Shown piece after piece: positions 2,830 through 24,633 of a stretch of DNA of 51,543 bases. Every line of letters begins with the position of its first letter. Positions within the stretch are counted from its first letter, which is position 1. The DNA lies in the IMG/VR virus record IMGVR_UViG_3300024054_000001, positions 1 through 51,543 of that record. One strand, given 5' to 3'. Source of the DNA: a virus (taxonomy: Duplodnaviria; Caudoviricetes). The notes under the pieces are model-generated. The model was not told where the DNA came from. It saw only the letters and a program-made list of their open reading frames with translations, and ran no database searches. Position numbers and translations under genes: made by a program.

Positions 2830-3267
2830 ATGGCTGACCCGAAGCTCCCGATGCACGGCGAGAACGTGCCGGTGACCGTGTTCATCGACAACGTGCCCTA
2901 CCCGCAGGCCGACAACGCGATCTCGATCGAGATCGAGCCCGTGATGAAGGAGCACAACTACGAACTGCTCGGACAGTCGCGTGACGTGCTCGACCAGCAG
3001 CTACGCGGGTGGCGCGGGAAGGTTATGTTCCAGCACACCGACAACGTGCTCTTCAAGGCATGGCTCGTGGTGCAGGAAGCGCGCGAGGCCCGGACGCGGA
3101 TCCCCGAGATCATGATCGCGCCATCGTGGGAGATGCGCGACGGCACGACAGAGACCTGGGCGTTGCAGCGCTGCGAGCTTGTGCCGACGAAGAATGTCGG
3201 AGGCGCGACCGAGGACGCGAAGCTCTCCTGGTCGTTCAAGGCGGTCGACTACGAGCAGGTATTCTAA
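2830..3267 (+). CDS. tail tube protein
   Basis: 145-aa beta-rich protein directly after the sheath. Confidence 0.75.
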   Translation: MADPKLPMHGENVPVTVFIDNVPYPQADNAISIEIEPVMKEHNYELLGQSRDVLDQQLRGWRGKVMFQHTDNVLFKAWLVVQEAREARTRIPEIMIAPSWEMRDGTTETWALQRCELVPTKNVGGATEDAKLSWSFKAVDYEQVF

Positions 3268-20502: not shown

Positions 20503-21128
20503 TCTCGCTCGTTCTCGCGATGCAGTTCGCTCGGCAGATGGCCGAGCGGTTCCACGCTCGACTCGTTCGAAAGAGCGACGCGATCGAGATGAAGCTCGTC
20601 GCGGCCGCGCTCGAGGCCGCCCGTCTGTTCGGCGCGCGTCTCCCGTCGACCGACGAGTTCCTCACGCGCTACGCCACGACGATCGGGCCCATGATCTACC
20701 TGCCCGACTCGATGTGGGACGACCCTCGCGCTCTCGTCGAGGTCGTGACGCACGAGTGCCAACACGTCCGGCAGTTCTGGCGTGGCAGCGGCGACGGCGT
20801 CGCAGGACCGACCGACAGGGACCTGCCGGGTGGATTCGGGTTCGGGTGGCTGTACCTCACTCAGGGCGAGGCGCGCGTGCGGTTCGAAGCCGAGGCGTAC
20901 GTCGCGGGCCTCGAGGCGACCGTGATCGGCATCGGTGAGCCGCTGCCGACGTCGCTCGAGCCGCTCGTCCAACCACTCGAGGGCGGCTACGCGCTCAACG
21001 ACGGCGAGATCGCGCTCGCTCGCGGTCTGCTCGAGGTCGGCGCGACGCAGGTCGCCCAGGGCGTCGCCCTCACCGACGCGGGGCAGACGGCGGTCGAGCT
21101 GCTCCGGCAGCTCGGGGTCGGGCGATGA
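20499..21128 (+). CDS. HExxH zinc metallopeptidase-like protein
   Basis: ATTIGPMIY...VTHECQHVRQ...FEAEAY zincin pattern; GGAGG RBS. Confidence 0.75.
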   Translation: MISLVLAMQFARQMAERFHARLVRKSDAIEMKLVAAALEAARLFGARLPSTDEFLTRYATTIGPMIYLPDSMWDDPRALVEVVTHECQHVRQFWRGSGDGVAGPTDRDLPGGFGFGWLYLTQGEARVRFEAEAYVAGLEATVIGIGEPLPTSLEPLVQPLEGGYALNDGEIALARGLLEVGATQVAQGVALTDAGQTAVELLRQLGVGR

Positions 21129-21174
21129 TGCTCGACGATCCCGACCGCTTCGACGCTGCGCCGTGGTGCGCGTC

Positions 21175-22038
21175 GTGAGCGGCCTCATCCTCGACGGCCG
21201 CGTCGTGCCGGTGCCCGGCGTCGACGTGCACTCCTACCTCGACGACGACCGGATCCCGGAGGCCACGGATGGCTACCGGCTCCGTCGCCGTCCGGTCGGC
21301 CCGAAGCGTGACGCGGCCGACGGCCCGTGGATTCGCGCGATCGTGCTGCACACGGTGCATGGCAAGCGTGGCGGCACGCTGCGCGCCGGACTCGGTCCAC
21401 CGTCGCAGCGAGACGTCTGGTACGCGCAGTACCAGGCGCGCACGCCCCGCGACGTCTCGTGGGACTACACCGTCGACACCGACGGGAGTGTCGCTGTGTC
21501 GAACGACCCGCTGCGCCGCGCGAGCTGGCACGCCGGGGGCGTCAACCGCCTCACGATCGGCATCGAGCTGGTGCAGGAGTCCGACGGCTCGCTCTGGATG
21601 GGGCAGCTCGACGTGCTCGTGCGCGTGCTCGACGTGCTCACGCGCGAACTGCGCATCCAGCGGCAGGTGCCGTTCGTGCCCGGCCAGGGCGCGCAGCGAG
21701 ACGTGTTCCCGCGGCTGCACAAGGTCGTCTCGACGCCACGACTGCACGAAAAGCCCGGCACCGATCCGGGTGGCGCATCGCTCGTCGGGATCTACGGCCA
21801 TCGCAACCAGACGATCCAGCGCGGCGTGGGCGATCCCACCGACTGGCCGTTCGAGCGCCTGGTCGACGCCGGCTACGAGGCCATGGACATGATGCACGGC
21901 GGCGACATCGACACGTGGCGGGTGCGCCAGGCGCAGCTCGGCATCGGCGTCGACGGGATCGCGGGGCCCGCGACCGTTGCCGCGCTCGAGCACGCCGGAC
22001 ACGCCCACGGTCTCTGGGCCAGTCGGCCGGGGGACTGA
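21175..22038 (+). CDS. endolysin: N-acetylmuramoyl-L-alanine amidase (Amidase_2) with peptidoglycan-binding tail
   Basis: IVLHT, SWHAGGVN, IGIE, GHR...DP motifs and C-terminal GIGVDGIAGPAT; start GTG inferred. Confidence 0.85.
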   Translation: MSGLILDGRVVPVPGVDVHSYLDDDRIPEATDGYRLRRRPVGPKRDAADGPWIRAIVLHTVHGKRGGTLRAGLGPPSQRDVWYAQYQARTPRDVSWDYTVDTDGSVAVSNDPLRRASWHAGGVNRLTIGIELVQESDGSLWMGQLDVLVRVLDVLTRELRIQRQVPFVPGQGAQRDVFPRLHKVVSTPRLHEKPGTDPGGASLVGIYGHRNQTIQRGVGDPTDWPFERLVDAGYEAMDMMHGGDIDTWRVRQAQLGIGVDGIAGPATVAALEHAGHAHGLWASRPGD

Positions 22039-22469
22039 TGGTCGCCCGCCTGCTCGTCGCCCTGCTCTCGCTCCTGCGCGGGCCGCAGTCCGCGTGCATC
22101 GAGTCCCGCCGGGATGTGATCATCGCCGCGGCCGAGGCCGGCGAGCGCGACCACGGCGTGCCGCCGGTGATCCTGCTCGTGATCGGCTTCGCCGAGAGTC
22201 ACCTCGGATGCGACGTCGGCGAGGGCGGCGGGTGGGGCGCCCCGATCTCGCGCACGCGCCGGCACACGGCCGGCACACCCGACCACGCTGCACGGGCGCT
22301 CGCCCGCAGCTACGAGGTCTGCGGCACCTGGCTCGGCGCCGTCTCGCGCTTCCGGTGCGGCCTCTGCCGCTGCCCGAGGCTGCGCGGCTACGACCCGACC
22401 GACGCGATGCGCCTGGTCGACCGCGTCTCGACGAGGGCCGGGACGCCGGCGCCGACGGGGGCGCCGTAG
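22038..22469 (+). CDS. secreted lysozyme-fold/lytic transglycosylase-like protein
   Basis: N-terminal hydrophobic signal; HGVPPVILLVIGFAES matches SLT motif I (catalytic Glu); WLGAVSRF matches a degenerate motif III. Confidence 0.55.
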   Translation: MVARLLVALLSLLRGPQSACIESRRDVIIAAAEAGERDHGVPPVILLVIGFAESHLGCDVGEGGGWGAPISRTRRHTAGTPDHAARALARSYEVCGTWLGAVSRFRCGLCRCPRLRGYDPTDAMRLVDRVSTRAGTPAPTGAP

Positions 22470-22472
22470 CTC

Positions 22473-22501
22473 TCGACGCGACTCGCTCGCTCACGTACTC
22501 T
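22473..22501 (+). promoter_or_regulatory. putative promoter TCGACG-17-TACTCT
   Basis: Intergenic; exact 17-nt spacing; same -10 hexamer as the ImmA promoter. Confidence 0.45.
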
Positions 22502-22507
22502 TGAGCC

Positions 22508-22571
22508 TCACCGGTTGGTGGCGCTCGCCGATCGACCCGTACGCCCGCTCCCTTCGGGGGGCGGGCGTTTC
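22508..22571 (+). ncRNA. candidate small RNA (two hairpins)
   Basis: Lies between the putative promoter and the terminator; 5' hairpin CGGUUGGUG/CGCCGAUCG. Confidence 0.3.
22541..22571 (+). terminator. intrinsic terminator hairpin between convergent late operon and integrase
   Basis: ACGCCCGCTCCC-TTCG-GGGGGCGGGCGT followed by a short T run. Confidence 0.8.
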
Positions 22572-22572
22572 G

Positions 22573-23892
22573 TCATTTCACGACCCGGCGCCGCGTTCGC
22601 TGCTTCACATCTGCTACAGCGGCTCTCGTCTCACGTGGTTTCGCCAACGGCGACGCAGGCTTGGGCAGCCAGATCGCGCGACTTTTAATCCGTTGGTCCA
22701 GGGTTCGATCCCCTGAGGTCCCACTGTTTTTCTCGGCGTTTCCAGCTTCCGTCAGTCCAGGGAGTCCATGGAGTGCTGCCGAGTCCACCGAGACTGCTAC
22801 ACCGGCGCTACAGTCGATCGTCGCAGCGAGTCGTGACGCGAGCGCGTCGGTCGACAGTCGCGCGTAGACGAGTTGCAGCATCGTCGTCGTGCGGTGTCCC
22901 ATGACGGGTGCGATCAACTCGAGCGGCGCGCCCGCGTGACGCAGCCAGGTCGCGCACGTGCGTCGCAGGTCGTTCGGTGTGCACCGCGTGATCGCCGCGT
23001 CCGCGCACTCGGCGCGATCGCACTGCCAGTGCTTCGCGATCGCGGCAGGGCATCGACGCGCGACGCATCCCGCACGCCGACACGCGCGCTCGAGGTCGCG
23101 CATCGGGTTGGACCACGAGCGGAAGAGCTGGGGTGCACGGCCGCCGGCATGCTCAAGCGCGAACGCGAGCATCGCGGACTGCTCGGGTGACACGATCGGA
23201 ACCTCGCGGTCCGACAGCTCGGTCTTCGTGCCGCGGAGGTGCACGCGATCGCCGCGGGCGTCGCCGCGCTCGGCTCGACACGTCTCGCCCCACCGTGCCG
23301 ACGTCGCGAGGATGAACGCCACGCGCGCGGCTCGGTCGGGCTCGAGGGCGCCGAGAAGTCTCTGGGCCTCGGCGAGCGTGAGCGCGCGCGTCCGTGGACG
23401 GTAGCCGCTCTCGACACGCGCCGGCATCACCGCGTCGATCGCGCCCGACCAGGTCCCGCGTCGCAGCGCCAAGCGCAGCGCCGACCGCAGTGTCGTCAGC
23501 TCCTTCGCGATCGTGTGCTCGCTCGTGCGCTCGCGACGTCGCTGCGACAGGTAGCCGTCGATCGTCGCTGCGTCGAGTTGCGCGGCCGGAAGGTCCCCGC
23601 CGAGCACGCGGAGCCACTGAGCGGCGCAGCCAGCGTAGAACTTCACCGTGGCGTGACTGCGGACGCCAGCGACGGCCTGCTCGTGTCGTGCATCGACGAG
23701 GGTCTGCAGGAGCGTTGCTAGGGTCGTCGACCGCCGCGCTGCGCGGGCCGGATCTTGGGCGGCTCGTTCGAGCCCACGAGCCGCAGACTCGGCCGCTCGT
23801 CGATCATGGCAGCGGGTCGAGCGGCACTGCCGCGCGCCCGACGCGTCGTAGAACCAACACCACCAGACCGAACCTCGGCGATAGAGCCGCAT
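22573..23892 (-). CDS. int: tyrosine integrase (439 aa) containing attP in its 3' end
   Basis: GAGGAG RBS before MRLYRRGSVWW; catalytic R (ARWGE), K (GTKT), NDLRRT, MGH and Y (LVYAR). Confidence 0.92.
   Translation of the reverse strand: MRLYRRGSVWWCWFYDASGARQCRSTRCHDRRAAESAARGLERAAQDPARAARRSTTLATLLQTLVDARHEQAVAGVRSHATVKFYAGCAAQWLRVLGGDLPAAQLDAATIDGYLSQRRRERTSEHTIAKELTTLRSALRLALRRGTWSGAIDAVMPARVESGYRPRTRALTLAEAQRLLGALEPDRAARVAFILATSARWGETCRAERGDARGDRVHLRGTKTELSDREVPIVSPEQSAMLAFALEHAGGRAPQLFRSWSNPMRDLERACRRAGCVARRCPAAIAKHWQCDRAECADAAITRCTPNDLRRTCATWLRHAGAPLELIAPVMGHRTTTMLQLVYARLSTDALASRLAATIDCSAGVAVSVDSAALHGLPGLTEAGNAEKNSGTSGDRTLDQRIKSRAIWLPKPASPLAKPRETRAAVADVKQRTRRRVVK
22600..22812. promoter_or_regulatory. 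putative integrase arm-type sites and Xis-binding repeats flanking the attP core
   Basis: CTGCTTCA/CTGCTACA at 22600/22611 and CTGCTACA/GCGCTACA at 22794/22805 (both pairs 11 bp apart); AGTCCA at 22754, 22763 and 22782. Confidence 0.55.
22680..22724 (+). other. attP core: 3' half of tRNA-Lys(UUU)
   Basis: GA-CTTTTAA-TCCGT-TGGTC-CAGGG-TTCGATC-CCCTG-AGGTCCC-AC gives the anticodon loop, variable loop, T arm and acceptor strand; the 5' half is absent. Confidence 0.92.
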
Positions 23893-24086
23893 CGGATCGC
23901 CTCCTCGAGCTGCCGCGAATACTGTTGCCACCGGTCGGCCGGGACACGCAAGAACCCTCTCGCCCCACGCTCGCGCCCGGCCGCGCGTCGCAGGTGCTCG
24001 TACGCGAGCGATCGGCTGCATCCGAGCGCCGCCTGCACGTCGTCGACGCCGAGCCACTTCTGCACATGGGGGAGGGGAGCGGTCAT
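23718..24086 (-). CDS. excisionase/recombination directionality factor-like HTH, overlapping int by 175 nt
   Basis: WLGVDDVQAALGCSRSLAYEHL is an HTH_17/AlpA-type motif; lies immediately upstream of int. Confidence 0.7.
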   Translation of the reverse strand: MTAPLPHVQKWLGVDDVQAALGCSRSLAYEHLRRAAGRERGARGFLRVPADRWQQYSRQLEEAIRCGSIAEVRSGGVGSTTRRARGSAARPAAMIDERPSLRLVGSNEPPKIRPAQRGGRRP

Positions 24087-24250
24087 CGACGCACCCATCC
24101 CGCGAGCACGTGTTCGGCGACTCGTCGCCAGCCCTCGCGCGCGCGCTCGGAGAGCGAGTGCCAGTGCCCCGGCGACCACGGCTGACGCCAATACGCGCAC
24201 TCCAGGCGCGAGGCGAGGTCGTCGAGCGGCGTGAGCGGCGGGCGGGTCAT
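24083..24250 (-). CDS. hypothetical protein
   Basis: MTRPPLTPLDDL...; ATGA overlaps on both sides. Confidence 0.5.
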   Translation of the reverse strand: MTRPPLTPLDDLASRLECAYWRQPWSPGHWHSLSERAREGWRRVAEHVLAGWVRR

Positions 24251-24633
24251 CGCGGATTCACCGGCTCGAGTTCTTTCGGGCCACGCCTTCCGTCCGTGCC
24301 GAGCACGATCGCCCGCAGCACGCGGGTGTGAGAGAGTCGGACATGCGGCTGCCATTCGGCGGCCGTCGCTCGCTGGATCTCGATCACGCACTCGCGGATC
24401 GCGCCCACGAGCGCACCGATCCGAGCCGGCACGACGTCTCCATCCGTGGCGCCAAGCAGCGCAATGGACGAGCGTTCCAAGTCGTCGGCCGCTTCGCGAA
24501 TCGCATCGATGCGTCGATCGAGGTCGTAATTGATCGCGCGCGCGCCCCACAGTGCGCTCGCCGTGCATTCGGGGCACGGCTTGTGGTCGTTGTACCGTCG
24601 GCGATGAGACACGCAAAGAGACCACTTGATCAT
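24247..24633 (-). CDS. hypothetical protein
   Basis: 128 aa; ATGA overlaps; N-terminal C/H cluster. Confidence 0.55.
   Translation of the reverse strand: MIKWSLCVSHRRRYNDHKPCPECTASALWGARAINYDLDRRIDAIREAADDLERSSIALLGATDGDVVPARIGALVGAIRECVIEIQRATAAEWQPHVRLSHTRVLRAIVLGTDGRRGPKELEPVNPR

Follow-up and report, generated by a model that had tools for sequence, protein, structure and literature searches.

Phage Mx8 carries its attachment site (attP) within its integrase gene (int), and integration creates a new 3' end for the gene and changes the behavior of the enzyme, as set out in the available text of a review (PMC6070905). For Mx9, which has one int gene and two bacterial attachment (attB) sites, the same text speaks of 'a similar principle' (PMC6070905). 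An earlier note on the DNA studied here had likened it to these two phages, in terms that agree with that text. Mx8 is so far the textbook single case of a bacterial integrase that rewrites its own gene. The 'suicidal' integrases of archaeal SSV1 and pTN3 split and inactivate their own gene and are called exclusive to archaea in the available part of a further paper (PMC8371274). Elements that target transfer RNA (tRNA) genes (tDNA) carry the tDNA from anticodon loop to 3' end, place int beside attP and rebuild the tRNA on integration; the available text of the Islander paper, which describes them, names Mx8 and SSV as having integrases that 'extend across attP' and exempts such integrases explicitly (PMC4383910). 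Here, we describe the integrase locus of the virus record IMGVR_UViG_3300024054_000001 (hereafter the window, the whole record of 51,543 bp), in which attP is very probably the 3' part of a tRNA-Lys(UUU) gene lying within int, such that integration would rebuild the tRNA and swap the C-terminus of the integrase (Int). Comparison with relatives suggests that the attP-in-int arrangement is the rule throughout one family of integrases from myxobacterial phages and prophages.

A probable attachment site within the integrase gene

The features of the locus are as follows (strand in brackets; ORF, open reading frame; pLDDT, predicted local distance difference test):

22573..23892 (-): tyrosine integrase gene, phage (attP) form, 439 aa; from the ORF list, Pfam and phrog_1
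22855..23382 (-): catalytic domain; Pfam match, residues 226-401 of the 494-aa ORF
22680..22723 (+): probable attP core, the 3' part of a tRNA-Lys(UUU) gene; from the sequence, lake tRNA-Lys contigs and a T-arm pattern
22576..22680 (-): 35-codon Int tail, predicted for the free-phage form only (RAIWLPKPASPLAKPRETRAAVADVKQRTRRRVVK); from the ORF and a codon view
22657..22671 (-): W-L-P-K-P in the tail, an instance of the hydrophobic-P-x-P element that relatives carry at a fixed distance past the core; from homologues and pLDDT
22573..22575 (-): TGA stop codon of phage-form int, 104 nt past the anticodon loop
22611..22623 (+): putative P-arm copy of an arm-type repeat, CTGCTACAGCGGC, +75 from the T arm, within tail codons A-A-V-A-D; from a repeat scan
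22794..22806 (+), element to 22812: putative P'-arm copy of the arm-type repeat, CTGCTACACCGGC, encoding C-S-A-G-V-A; from a repeat scan

The longest int ORF spans 22573..24057 on the minus strand, begins with a GTG at 24057 and encodes 494 aa, with no stop codon until 22573-22575. The likely start is at 23892, where MRLYRRG aligns with the starts of homologues (MRLY(K/R)RG) to give the 439-aa protein whose numbering is used below. Int scores 38.4 bits with Pfam PF00589 (cut-off 27.1), is also matched by PF02899, and aligns over residues 4-375 with the integrases of phrog_1 (E=2.4e-37). Residues K223, R310, H333 and Y343 are invariant across a 31-sequence alignment and, from general knowledge of such enzymes, are taken to be the catalytic residues, with Y343 as the nucleophile. 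With the catalytic tyrosine at residue 343 of 439, all catalytic parts lie upstream of the core, which sits ~47 residues past this tyrosine.

The core comprises the anticodon loop CTTTTAA (22682-22688), the T arm (22699-22715), the 3' strand of the acceptor stem (22716-22722) and the discriminator A (22723). It is without a 5' half and without CCA, the bases after the discriminator being CTG. In the int frame, the codons GGG GAT CGA ACC CTG GAC CAA CGG ATT AAA AGT, which are the exact antisense of the T arm, variable loop, 3' strand of the anticodon stem and anticodon loop, encode G-D-R-T-L-D-Q-R-I-K-S, and the Lys codon AAA lies opposite the anticodon UUU. The ORF carries NSGTSGDRTLDQRIKS and then exactly 35 residues (RAIW...RRRVVK) that include 11 Lys/Arg and 2 Asp/Glu (net charge ~+9). 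Thus, the earlier claim that int reads antisense through a tRNA fragment and on into 35 basic residues is confirmed, with no stop before 22573-22575. The five bases that precede the loop (CGCGA) match the stem strand only at their last two positions and, thus, the tRNA likeness begins at 22680. At E<=10, Rfam makes no tRNA call on the fragment and returns tRNA-like families only (22678-22723, E ~0.7-0.8).

Contigs of four lake-water metagenome runs, aligned with positions 21500-24300 of the window, are of two kinds. The first bridges the attP form with 0 differences (X3, 22140-24157; X5, 22359-22726; X6, 22536-22877; X4, 22451-22694). The second matches the window solely at 22680/22682-22715 (34-36 nt, 1-2 differences); to the left of this match stand canonical tRNA 5' halves (acceptor, U8-A9, D arm and 5' strand of the anticodon stem), and to the right other acceptor strands followed by CCA. 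Judged from these parts, the second kind is tRNA-Lys(UUU) genes of co-resident organisms, and the identity of the fragment is confirmed. The match of these genes starts at positions 30-31, just before the loop, in keeping with the earlier placement of the tRNA similarity from the anticodon loop onward.

A strict T-arm pattern, run on both strands, finds two matches in the window, one at the core and one at 3230-3246; in Mx8, which served as positive control, the single match is at the known attP. The match at 3230-3246 (GGTCG TTCAAGG CGGTC) is rejected as a tRNA site, as it lies inside coding sequence, has no other tRNA features and is ascribed to chance. The core runs from the anticodon loop to the discriminator, with int adjacent and convergent on the tRNA that would be rebuilt, as in tDNA elements of the anticodon-loop type.

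Short forms in chromosomes and long forms in viruses

A protein collection holds 267 homologues of the window Int at E<=0.001 among 8,000 scored candidates. Those that are named are proteins of Myxococcaceae or Polyangiaceae metagenome-assembled genomes (MAGs), and recognizable antisense-tRNA peptides are found at the homologue C-termini. Among the best 120 homologues, 52 end in D-arm antisense at most 12 residues past the anticodon-loop peptide (e.g., ...TRGFSVLCSTD and ...RIFSPLLYQLS), 43 are long forms that read on for 16-77 residues (median 34), 20 are without such a peptide by regular expression, and 5 have other short ends.

The genomic surroundings of these two types of ending differ. 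A scan of species genomes yields 138 relatives, from which 80 loci are kept, nearly all from Myxococcota MAGs. In 43 of the 80, the stop codon of the Int ORF falls within a complete tRNA gene that converges on int (Phe-GAA 40, Lys-UUU 2 and Met 1), always 61-66 nt from the tRNA 3' end, in the D arm or at positions 7-9. The other genome loci read through a T-arm fragment (11) or a full tRNA (2), stop before the tRNA (2), have no tRNA-like element (15) or run off the contig end (7). Viral contigs provide 54 loci, 53 of them scored: the Int ORF stops inside a full tRNA in none of the 53 and reads through a fragment in 24, whereas 2 (L085 and L117) read through what ARAGORN calls a full tRNA, 6 have a T arm after the stop and 21 have nothing. 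An integration-dependent rewriting of int predicts just this split, with the short form in chromosomes and the long one in viruses. The counts (43 of 80 and 24 of 53) lend strong comparative support to the earlier proposal that attP lies in int, that int would converge on the rebuilt tRNA and that its C-terminus would be replaced. The 'full' tRNA-Lys called in L085 (L085:1607-1680) has two acceptor-stem mismatches and a 3-bp D stem and is treated as a fragment; its anticodon arm, ACGGA/TCCGT, matches the 3' strand of the window, and it is probably a piece of attP beside which a tRNA-like 5' half occurs by chance.

Two of the chromosomal relatives end at tRNA-Lys. L008 encodes an intact Int of 433 aa that ends ...GLEPTTLGLKIPCSTD-TGA in the D arm of tRNA-Lys(UUU), in a frame one off that of the window. 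L052 uses the exact frame of the window (GGG AAT CGA ACC ... ATT AAA AAT) and ends ...GIKNPLLCRLS-TAA, with the TAA stop being the antisense of tRNA positions 9-8-7. Beyond the tRNA-Lys, the two MAGs carry the same host gene (~420-450 aa, motif NPWAMAHGL; L008:4300-5652 and L052:4234-5496) and, thus, this side of the tRNA is chromosome. In both MAGs, tRNA-Lys stands between an integrase and the NPWAMAHGL gene, which looks like a conserved chromosomal hotspot.

The type of core follows the Int lineage. A maximum-likelihood tree was built from 121 Int sequences (120 homologues and L008), cut at residue 360 such that the tails cannot drive placement, with core types labeled by regular expression and L052 left out for its frameshifts. 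All 8 sequences with an RIK-type core group with the window Int in one clade of 12 leaves (support 0.79), as expected for a working attP.

A control on reading frame points the same way. Between the end of the catalytic-domain match and the T arm, a stretch with a median of 119.5 nt, 85 of 96 loci keep the Int frame open, compared to 32 and 29 for the other two frames; the contrast is large but is not a probability, as the loci are related. A run of 93 stop-free codons at ~71% GC, as in the window, has a chance of ~0.15 by our own hand estimate; thus, the open frame of the window alone is unsurprising, and it is the family-wide control that carries weight.

Three further observations concern the family as a whole. 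Of its targets, tRNA-Phe(GAA) is by far the most common (40 of the 43 tRNA-stopping loci; genome loci L002-L081). The ending ...GIEPPTRGFS(V/I)(L/P)CST(D/N/S) recurs in database proteins that are labeled plainly 'integrase', and the arrangement described here explains the antisense-tRNA look of such annotated C-termini (GIEPPTRGFS..CSTD and RIKS..). Family contigs also occur in MAGs labeled Chloroflexota, Gaiellales, Gallionella and Peribacteria (L015, L043, L050, L054, L071 and L074), which may be mis-binned mobile elements or true spread past Myxococcota.

Putative arm-type repeats on both sides of the core

The two putative arm-type repeats of the window lie ~70 nt (P) and ~115 nt (P') from the anticodon loop, both inside int codons. 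The copies at 22611-22623 and 22794-22806 are identical at 12 of 13 positions, which alone is weak (~0.1 expected by chance, own estimate). Positions 22799-22812 are the reverse complement of TGTAGCGCCGGTGT, which agrees with the family motif at 12 of 14 positions (2 mismatches) and lies at -97 from the T arm. Among 34 attP-like loci, exact direct repeats of at least 11 nt flank the core in 13 versus ~1.4 expected (own estimate), and in 12 of those 13 the distances from the T arm are ~70-130 nt on the upstream side and 65-120 nt on the downstream side. Pairs of 11-nt direct repeats that differ at 1 position were discarded as evidence, since ~1 such pair per locus is expected between the two flanks by our own estimate.

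A recurrent motif, TGTGACGCCGGTGT, is noted (at <=3 mismatches) on the P' side of 14 and the P side of 11 of 36 attP-like loci, compared to a background of ~1.1 per 10 kb or ~0.02 expected per locus. The motif is found on the P side of none of 40 prophage forms, where the DNA is that of the host; this comparison has little power, as the P' side of prophage forms has the motif in just 5 of 43. On the P' side the motif is read C-D/S-A-G-V and on the P side, one frame over, V-T/A-P-V. The flanking repeats of the window are, thus, putative Int-binding sites of the arm type typical of the family, and the arm-like pair that had been noticed earlier in coding sequence fits the family in both position and motif.

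A separate 15-nt direct repeat, GCAGCCAG[G/A]TCGCGC, is 14/15 identical between 22941-22955 and 22665-22679 and pairs the tail codons A-I-W-L with the catalytic-domain codons A-T-W-L; coincidence is possible.

Proposed course of integration

Int is proposed to recombine attP with a host tRNA-Lys gene, with strand exchange probably in the anticodon loop. The rebuilt tRNA would consist of a host 5' half and the phage 3' part, and int would be left convergent on this tRNA. The prophage int would read on, in antisense, into the host anticodon stem and D arm and stop there, ending at about ...RIKS-P-L-L-C/Y-Q/R-L-S-stop. The acceptor strand AGGTCCC implies a T at host position 7 and, with it, a TAA stop. 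Read by hand into two lake tRNA 5' halves, the frame of the window gives ...RIKS-PLLCQLS-stop and ...RIK(R)-PLLYH-stop. Together with the ending PLLCRLS-TAA of L052, these readings indicate that the ending predicted earlier, PLLY(Q/R)LS-stop, is essentially right. Int would change from 439 aa to ~411 aa and remain catalytically complete, with ~7 residues in place of the 35-residue basic tail and its WLPKP motif, and excision would restore the long form. A check proposed with that prediction, to find the host tRNA-Lys and translate across the junction, gave junctions in relatives (L008 and L052), while for this phage's own site there were 0 matches in the samples.

The consequences of the swap are a separate matter. 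If Mx8 is a guide, the activity of the long Int may differ from that of the short one in a manner that biases the system towards a stable lysogen, a view to which we give somewhat less than an even chance. A broader proposal, which we regard as unlikely to hold in full, is that a large integrase family of uncultured Myxococcota (267 protein-collection matches, 138 species-genome and 54 viral-contig relatives, at tRNA-Phe, -Lys, -Met and other targets), which BLAST connects to Mx8 Int at the N-terminus alone, has its whole attP, core and both arms, at the end of int. Each integration would then remove a ~34-residue tail whose hydrophobic-P-x-P element may dock on the enzyme or a neighboring protomer, such that recombination would alter its own enzyme in a reversible manner and determine its direction in place of, or beside, an excisionase. 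The same nucleotides would serve as protein code, Int-binding site and tRNA.

The family offers many natural long/short Int pairs with which to ask whether the swap controls directionality. Site-specific integration tools could be drawn from it for myxobacterial tRNA-Lys and tRNA-Phe sites, where the Mx8 and Mx9 systems alone are in common use. Annotation tools that forbid overlap of a tDNA fragment with coding sequence will miss elements of this kind.

Alternative explanations

The strongest alternative, to which we give a chance just under even, is that the C-terminal swap is a neutral by-product: Int would functionally end shortly past the helix that follows the catalytic tyrosine, the ORF would simply overrun attP, and the tail peptides would be shadows of DNA sites. 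A number of observations speak for this alternative and against a function of the tail. An AlphaFold2 model built with the 31-sequence alignment (mean pLDDT 82.5) is folded to about residue 360 and has no secondary structure beyond it; pLDDT is below 50 at residues 361-403 and 421-439, with most of the tail predicted to be disordered. The linker and tail are very variable in sequence, and tails range from 14 to 77 residues across the wider family. Past the T arm of 36 attP-like forms, the Int frame has a median of 110.5 nt to its stop versus 71 and 74.5 nt for the other frames and exceeds both in 18 of the 36 (own count), at most a weak signal. Stops are rare at 70% G+C, and 35 stop-free codons have a chance of ~0.5 from composition (own estimate). 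Since one DNA motif, TGTGACGCCGGTGT, yields C-D-A-G-V in the frame used on the P' side and V-T-P-V in that used on the P side, the recurrent tail peptide V-x-P-V-x-Q is the shadow of a DNA site rather than the product of protein selection; the same origin applies to the window version, A-V-A-D-V-K-Q. In several relatives the stop precedes the P-arm site, as in L074, L079, L120 and L121, where the stop is at +76 and the repeat at +81 to +86. A 2003 paper, going by its title, is said to find that the C-terminal segment of Mx8 Int is not needed for excision.

Neutral read-through does not, by contrast, predict that the Int frame is open to the core far more often than the other frames (~30 of 96 loci). 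Tail length clusters at 32-36 residues in proteins that are only ~45% identical. Of 43 long-form homologues, 26 have an [WLIV]PxP element at most 16 aa past the core peptide, across Phe-, Lys- and other core types, and P-x-P is kept in frame despite the core being read in two frames (start at +33 in the window and at +34 in L012 and L083). The pLDDT rises to 66-74 at residues ~401-420, over the WLPKP region, and is below 50 on both sides. The prophage form of Mx8 is, in addition, reported to behave differently (available text of PMC6070905).

That the tRNA-like piece is a relic, such as a decayed phage tRNA gene or an old junction, with integration occurring elsewhere or never, is very improbable. 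This alternative draws on the searches for the host site, which covered samples and, thus, mean not found in what was searched rather than absent. The exact 43-mer has 0 matches in viral contigs, the exact 42-mer 0 in genome contigs and 0 in metagenome contigs, and the exact 26-mer (T arm and acceptor) 0 in metagenome contigs. The 42-mer (<=3 mismatches) and 26-mer (<=2) have 0 matches in 401 sampled genomes of the phylum of L008, and the 42-mer 0 in 5 further sequence handles. No attL or attR junction contig is among the matches listed from the lake runs. The lake tRNA-Lys contigs share the stretch from anticodon loop to T arm and have different acceptor stems; as all those listed differ from the AGGTCCC of the phage, none of them is the attB of this phage. 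Two points from the relatives weigh against the main reading: all 8 of the closest Lys-type relatives are long forms, and the int of L052 (L052:2700-4130), the single integrated example in the frame of the window, has frameshifts in its N-terminal half, with the C-terminal half and junction intact, and is a decaying element or possibly an assembly error. A relic would not, however, be expected to lie exactly at the core position of the family, downstream of the catalytic tyrosine in an open Int frame, between arm repeats of the family type at family-typical distances, or to belong to a core type that goes together with the Int clade. The piece also begins at the anticodon loop and ends at the discriminator, as in tRNA-targeting elements (available text of PMC4383910), and the window has no other tRNA-like site with flanking tRNA features.

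It is hardly credible that the long ORF is an assembly or sequencing artefact with a real stop upstream of the core, an outcome that the earlier note had named as one that would overturn its reading: nothing specific favors it beyond the record being a single metagenomic assembly, whereas 22359-22877 or more is covered by independent contigs of the runs X3, X5 and X6 without a single difference or indel, and the same open arrangement is found in dozens of relatives.

Genome, host and neighboring genes

The window is the free (attP) configuration of a complete temperate-phage genome, not a prophage junction. The record has direct terminal repeats, a completeness rating of 100% and a G+C content of ~69%. 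The phage comes from lake water, and contigs of its attP form occur in lake-water metagenome runs. Its host is most likely an uncultured, high-G+C member of the Myxococcota. ARAGORN finds no whole tRNA gene in the 51,543-bp window. The neighbors of the integrase locus are:

20935..22038 (+): N-acetylmuramoyl-L-alanine amidase (lysis gene), on the far side of attP; Pfam PF01510, E=5.5e-10
22541..22568 (+): hairpin, 12 bp, perfect and G+C-rich, with a UUCG loop, followed by a U-rich run; from an inverted-repeat scan and folding
23718..24086 (-): small ORF upstream of int, overlapping the int start, candidate excisionase; from the ORF list

The amidase gene is followed by a small ORF to the left of attP. 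With these two genes on one side and the integrase on the other, the tRNA-like piece is flanked by phage DNA on both sides and, as a lysis gene lies beyond attP, the P arm is phage rather than host DNA. The hairpin stands between int and the lysis genes that converge on it, 5 nt off the int stop codon, and likely marks both where the lysis operon ends and where attP has its outer edge. A strict promoter and terminator scan of 22300-24400 makes no call, this hairpin included, and the 76-nt stretch that holds it folds well yet is unexceptional compared to shuffled sequences (z=-1.5).

The small ORF upstream of int is a candidate for a new type of excisionase. It shares the motif ALGCSRS.AY.HLR ... 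LLRV ... W..Y with its counterpart in L008 (L008:2366-3226), and both overlap the int start by ~175-225 nt. The ORF has no match in Pfam, PHROG or NCBIfam and no similarity to Uoi of Mx8.

Comparison with known systems

A description of the family-wide pattern was not found in the literature searched, which included the available part of a 2026 myxophage preprint and had most subscription journals outside its reach. Of the described systems, Mx8 is the closest in layout. Similarly to the window, Mx8 has attP in int after the catalytic domain, with its T arm read antisense at about residue 416 of 533, a core formed by the 3' part of a tRNA, putative arms on both sides within int, and a small gene upstream that overlaps the int start. 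The prophage form of Mx8 Int is reportedly less active, the arms are said to lie within int and Uoi is said to be the excisionase. The P' motif of Mx8 is TGTGACAGCGGTGT at -84 (C-D-S-G-V), compared to TGTAGCGCCGGTGT at -97 (C-S-A-G-V) in the window, and the N-terminal 33 aa are 39% identical (pairwise BLASTP, E=1e-4). The arm-binding domains of such integrases lie in the N-terminus. Based on the shared N-terminal residues and P' motif, arm recognition seems to be common to the Int proteins of the window and of Mx8, with the rest diverged beyond the reach of BLAST.

By contrast, the rest of Int has no BLASTP similarity to Mx8 Int that can be detected, the tail past the core is ~113 codons (340 nt) in Mx8 versus 35 in the window, the upstream ORF is unrelated to Uoi, and the target tRNA differs, that of Mx8 being tRNA-Asp. 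A tblastn search of 50,697 phage records with the window Int gives no match at 1e-5; at E<=1 the matches are solely integrases that are less than 30% identical and from unrelated phages, with no Myxococcus phage among them. Thus, the system of the window would work like Mx8 but is not to be filed as a close relative of Mx8 Int. The likeness to Mx9 is that of the principle described in the available text of the review (PMC6070905).

The tail may also be set beside that of lambda Int, in which a short segment past the catalytic tyrosine, with a Trp, docks on a neighboring protomer and tunes catalysis; a similar role could apply to WLPKP, by pure analogy. Ordinary tDNA integrases usually have the tRNA fragment just outside int, whereas in the window it lies inside. 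The archaeal integrases differ in that their gene is split, while the core of the window follows the catalytic tyrosine and the prophage int of its relatives keeps the whole catalytic domain. Like SSV1 and pTN3, the window has its probable attachment site within int and, thus, would combine int, attP and directionality in one compact module, as described for the archaeal elements in the available part of that paper (PMC8371274).

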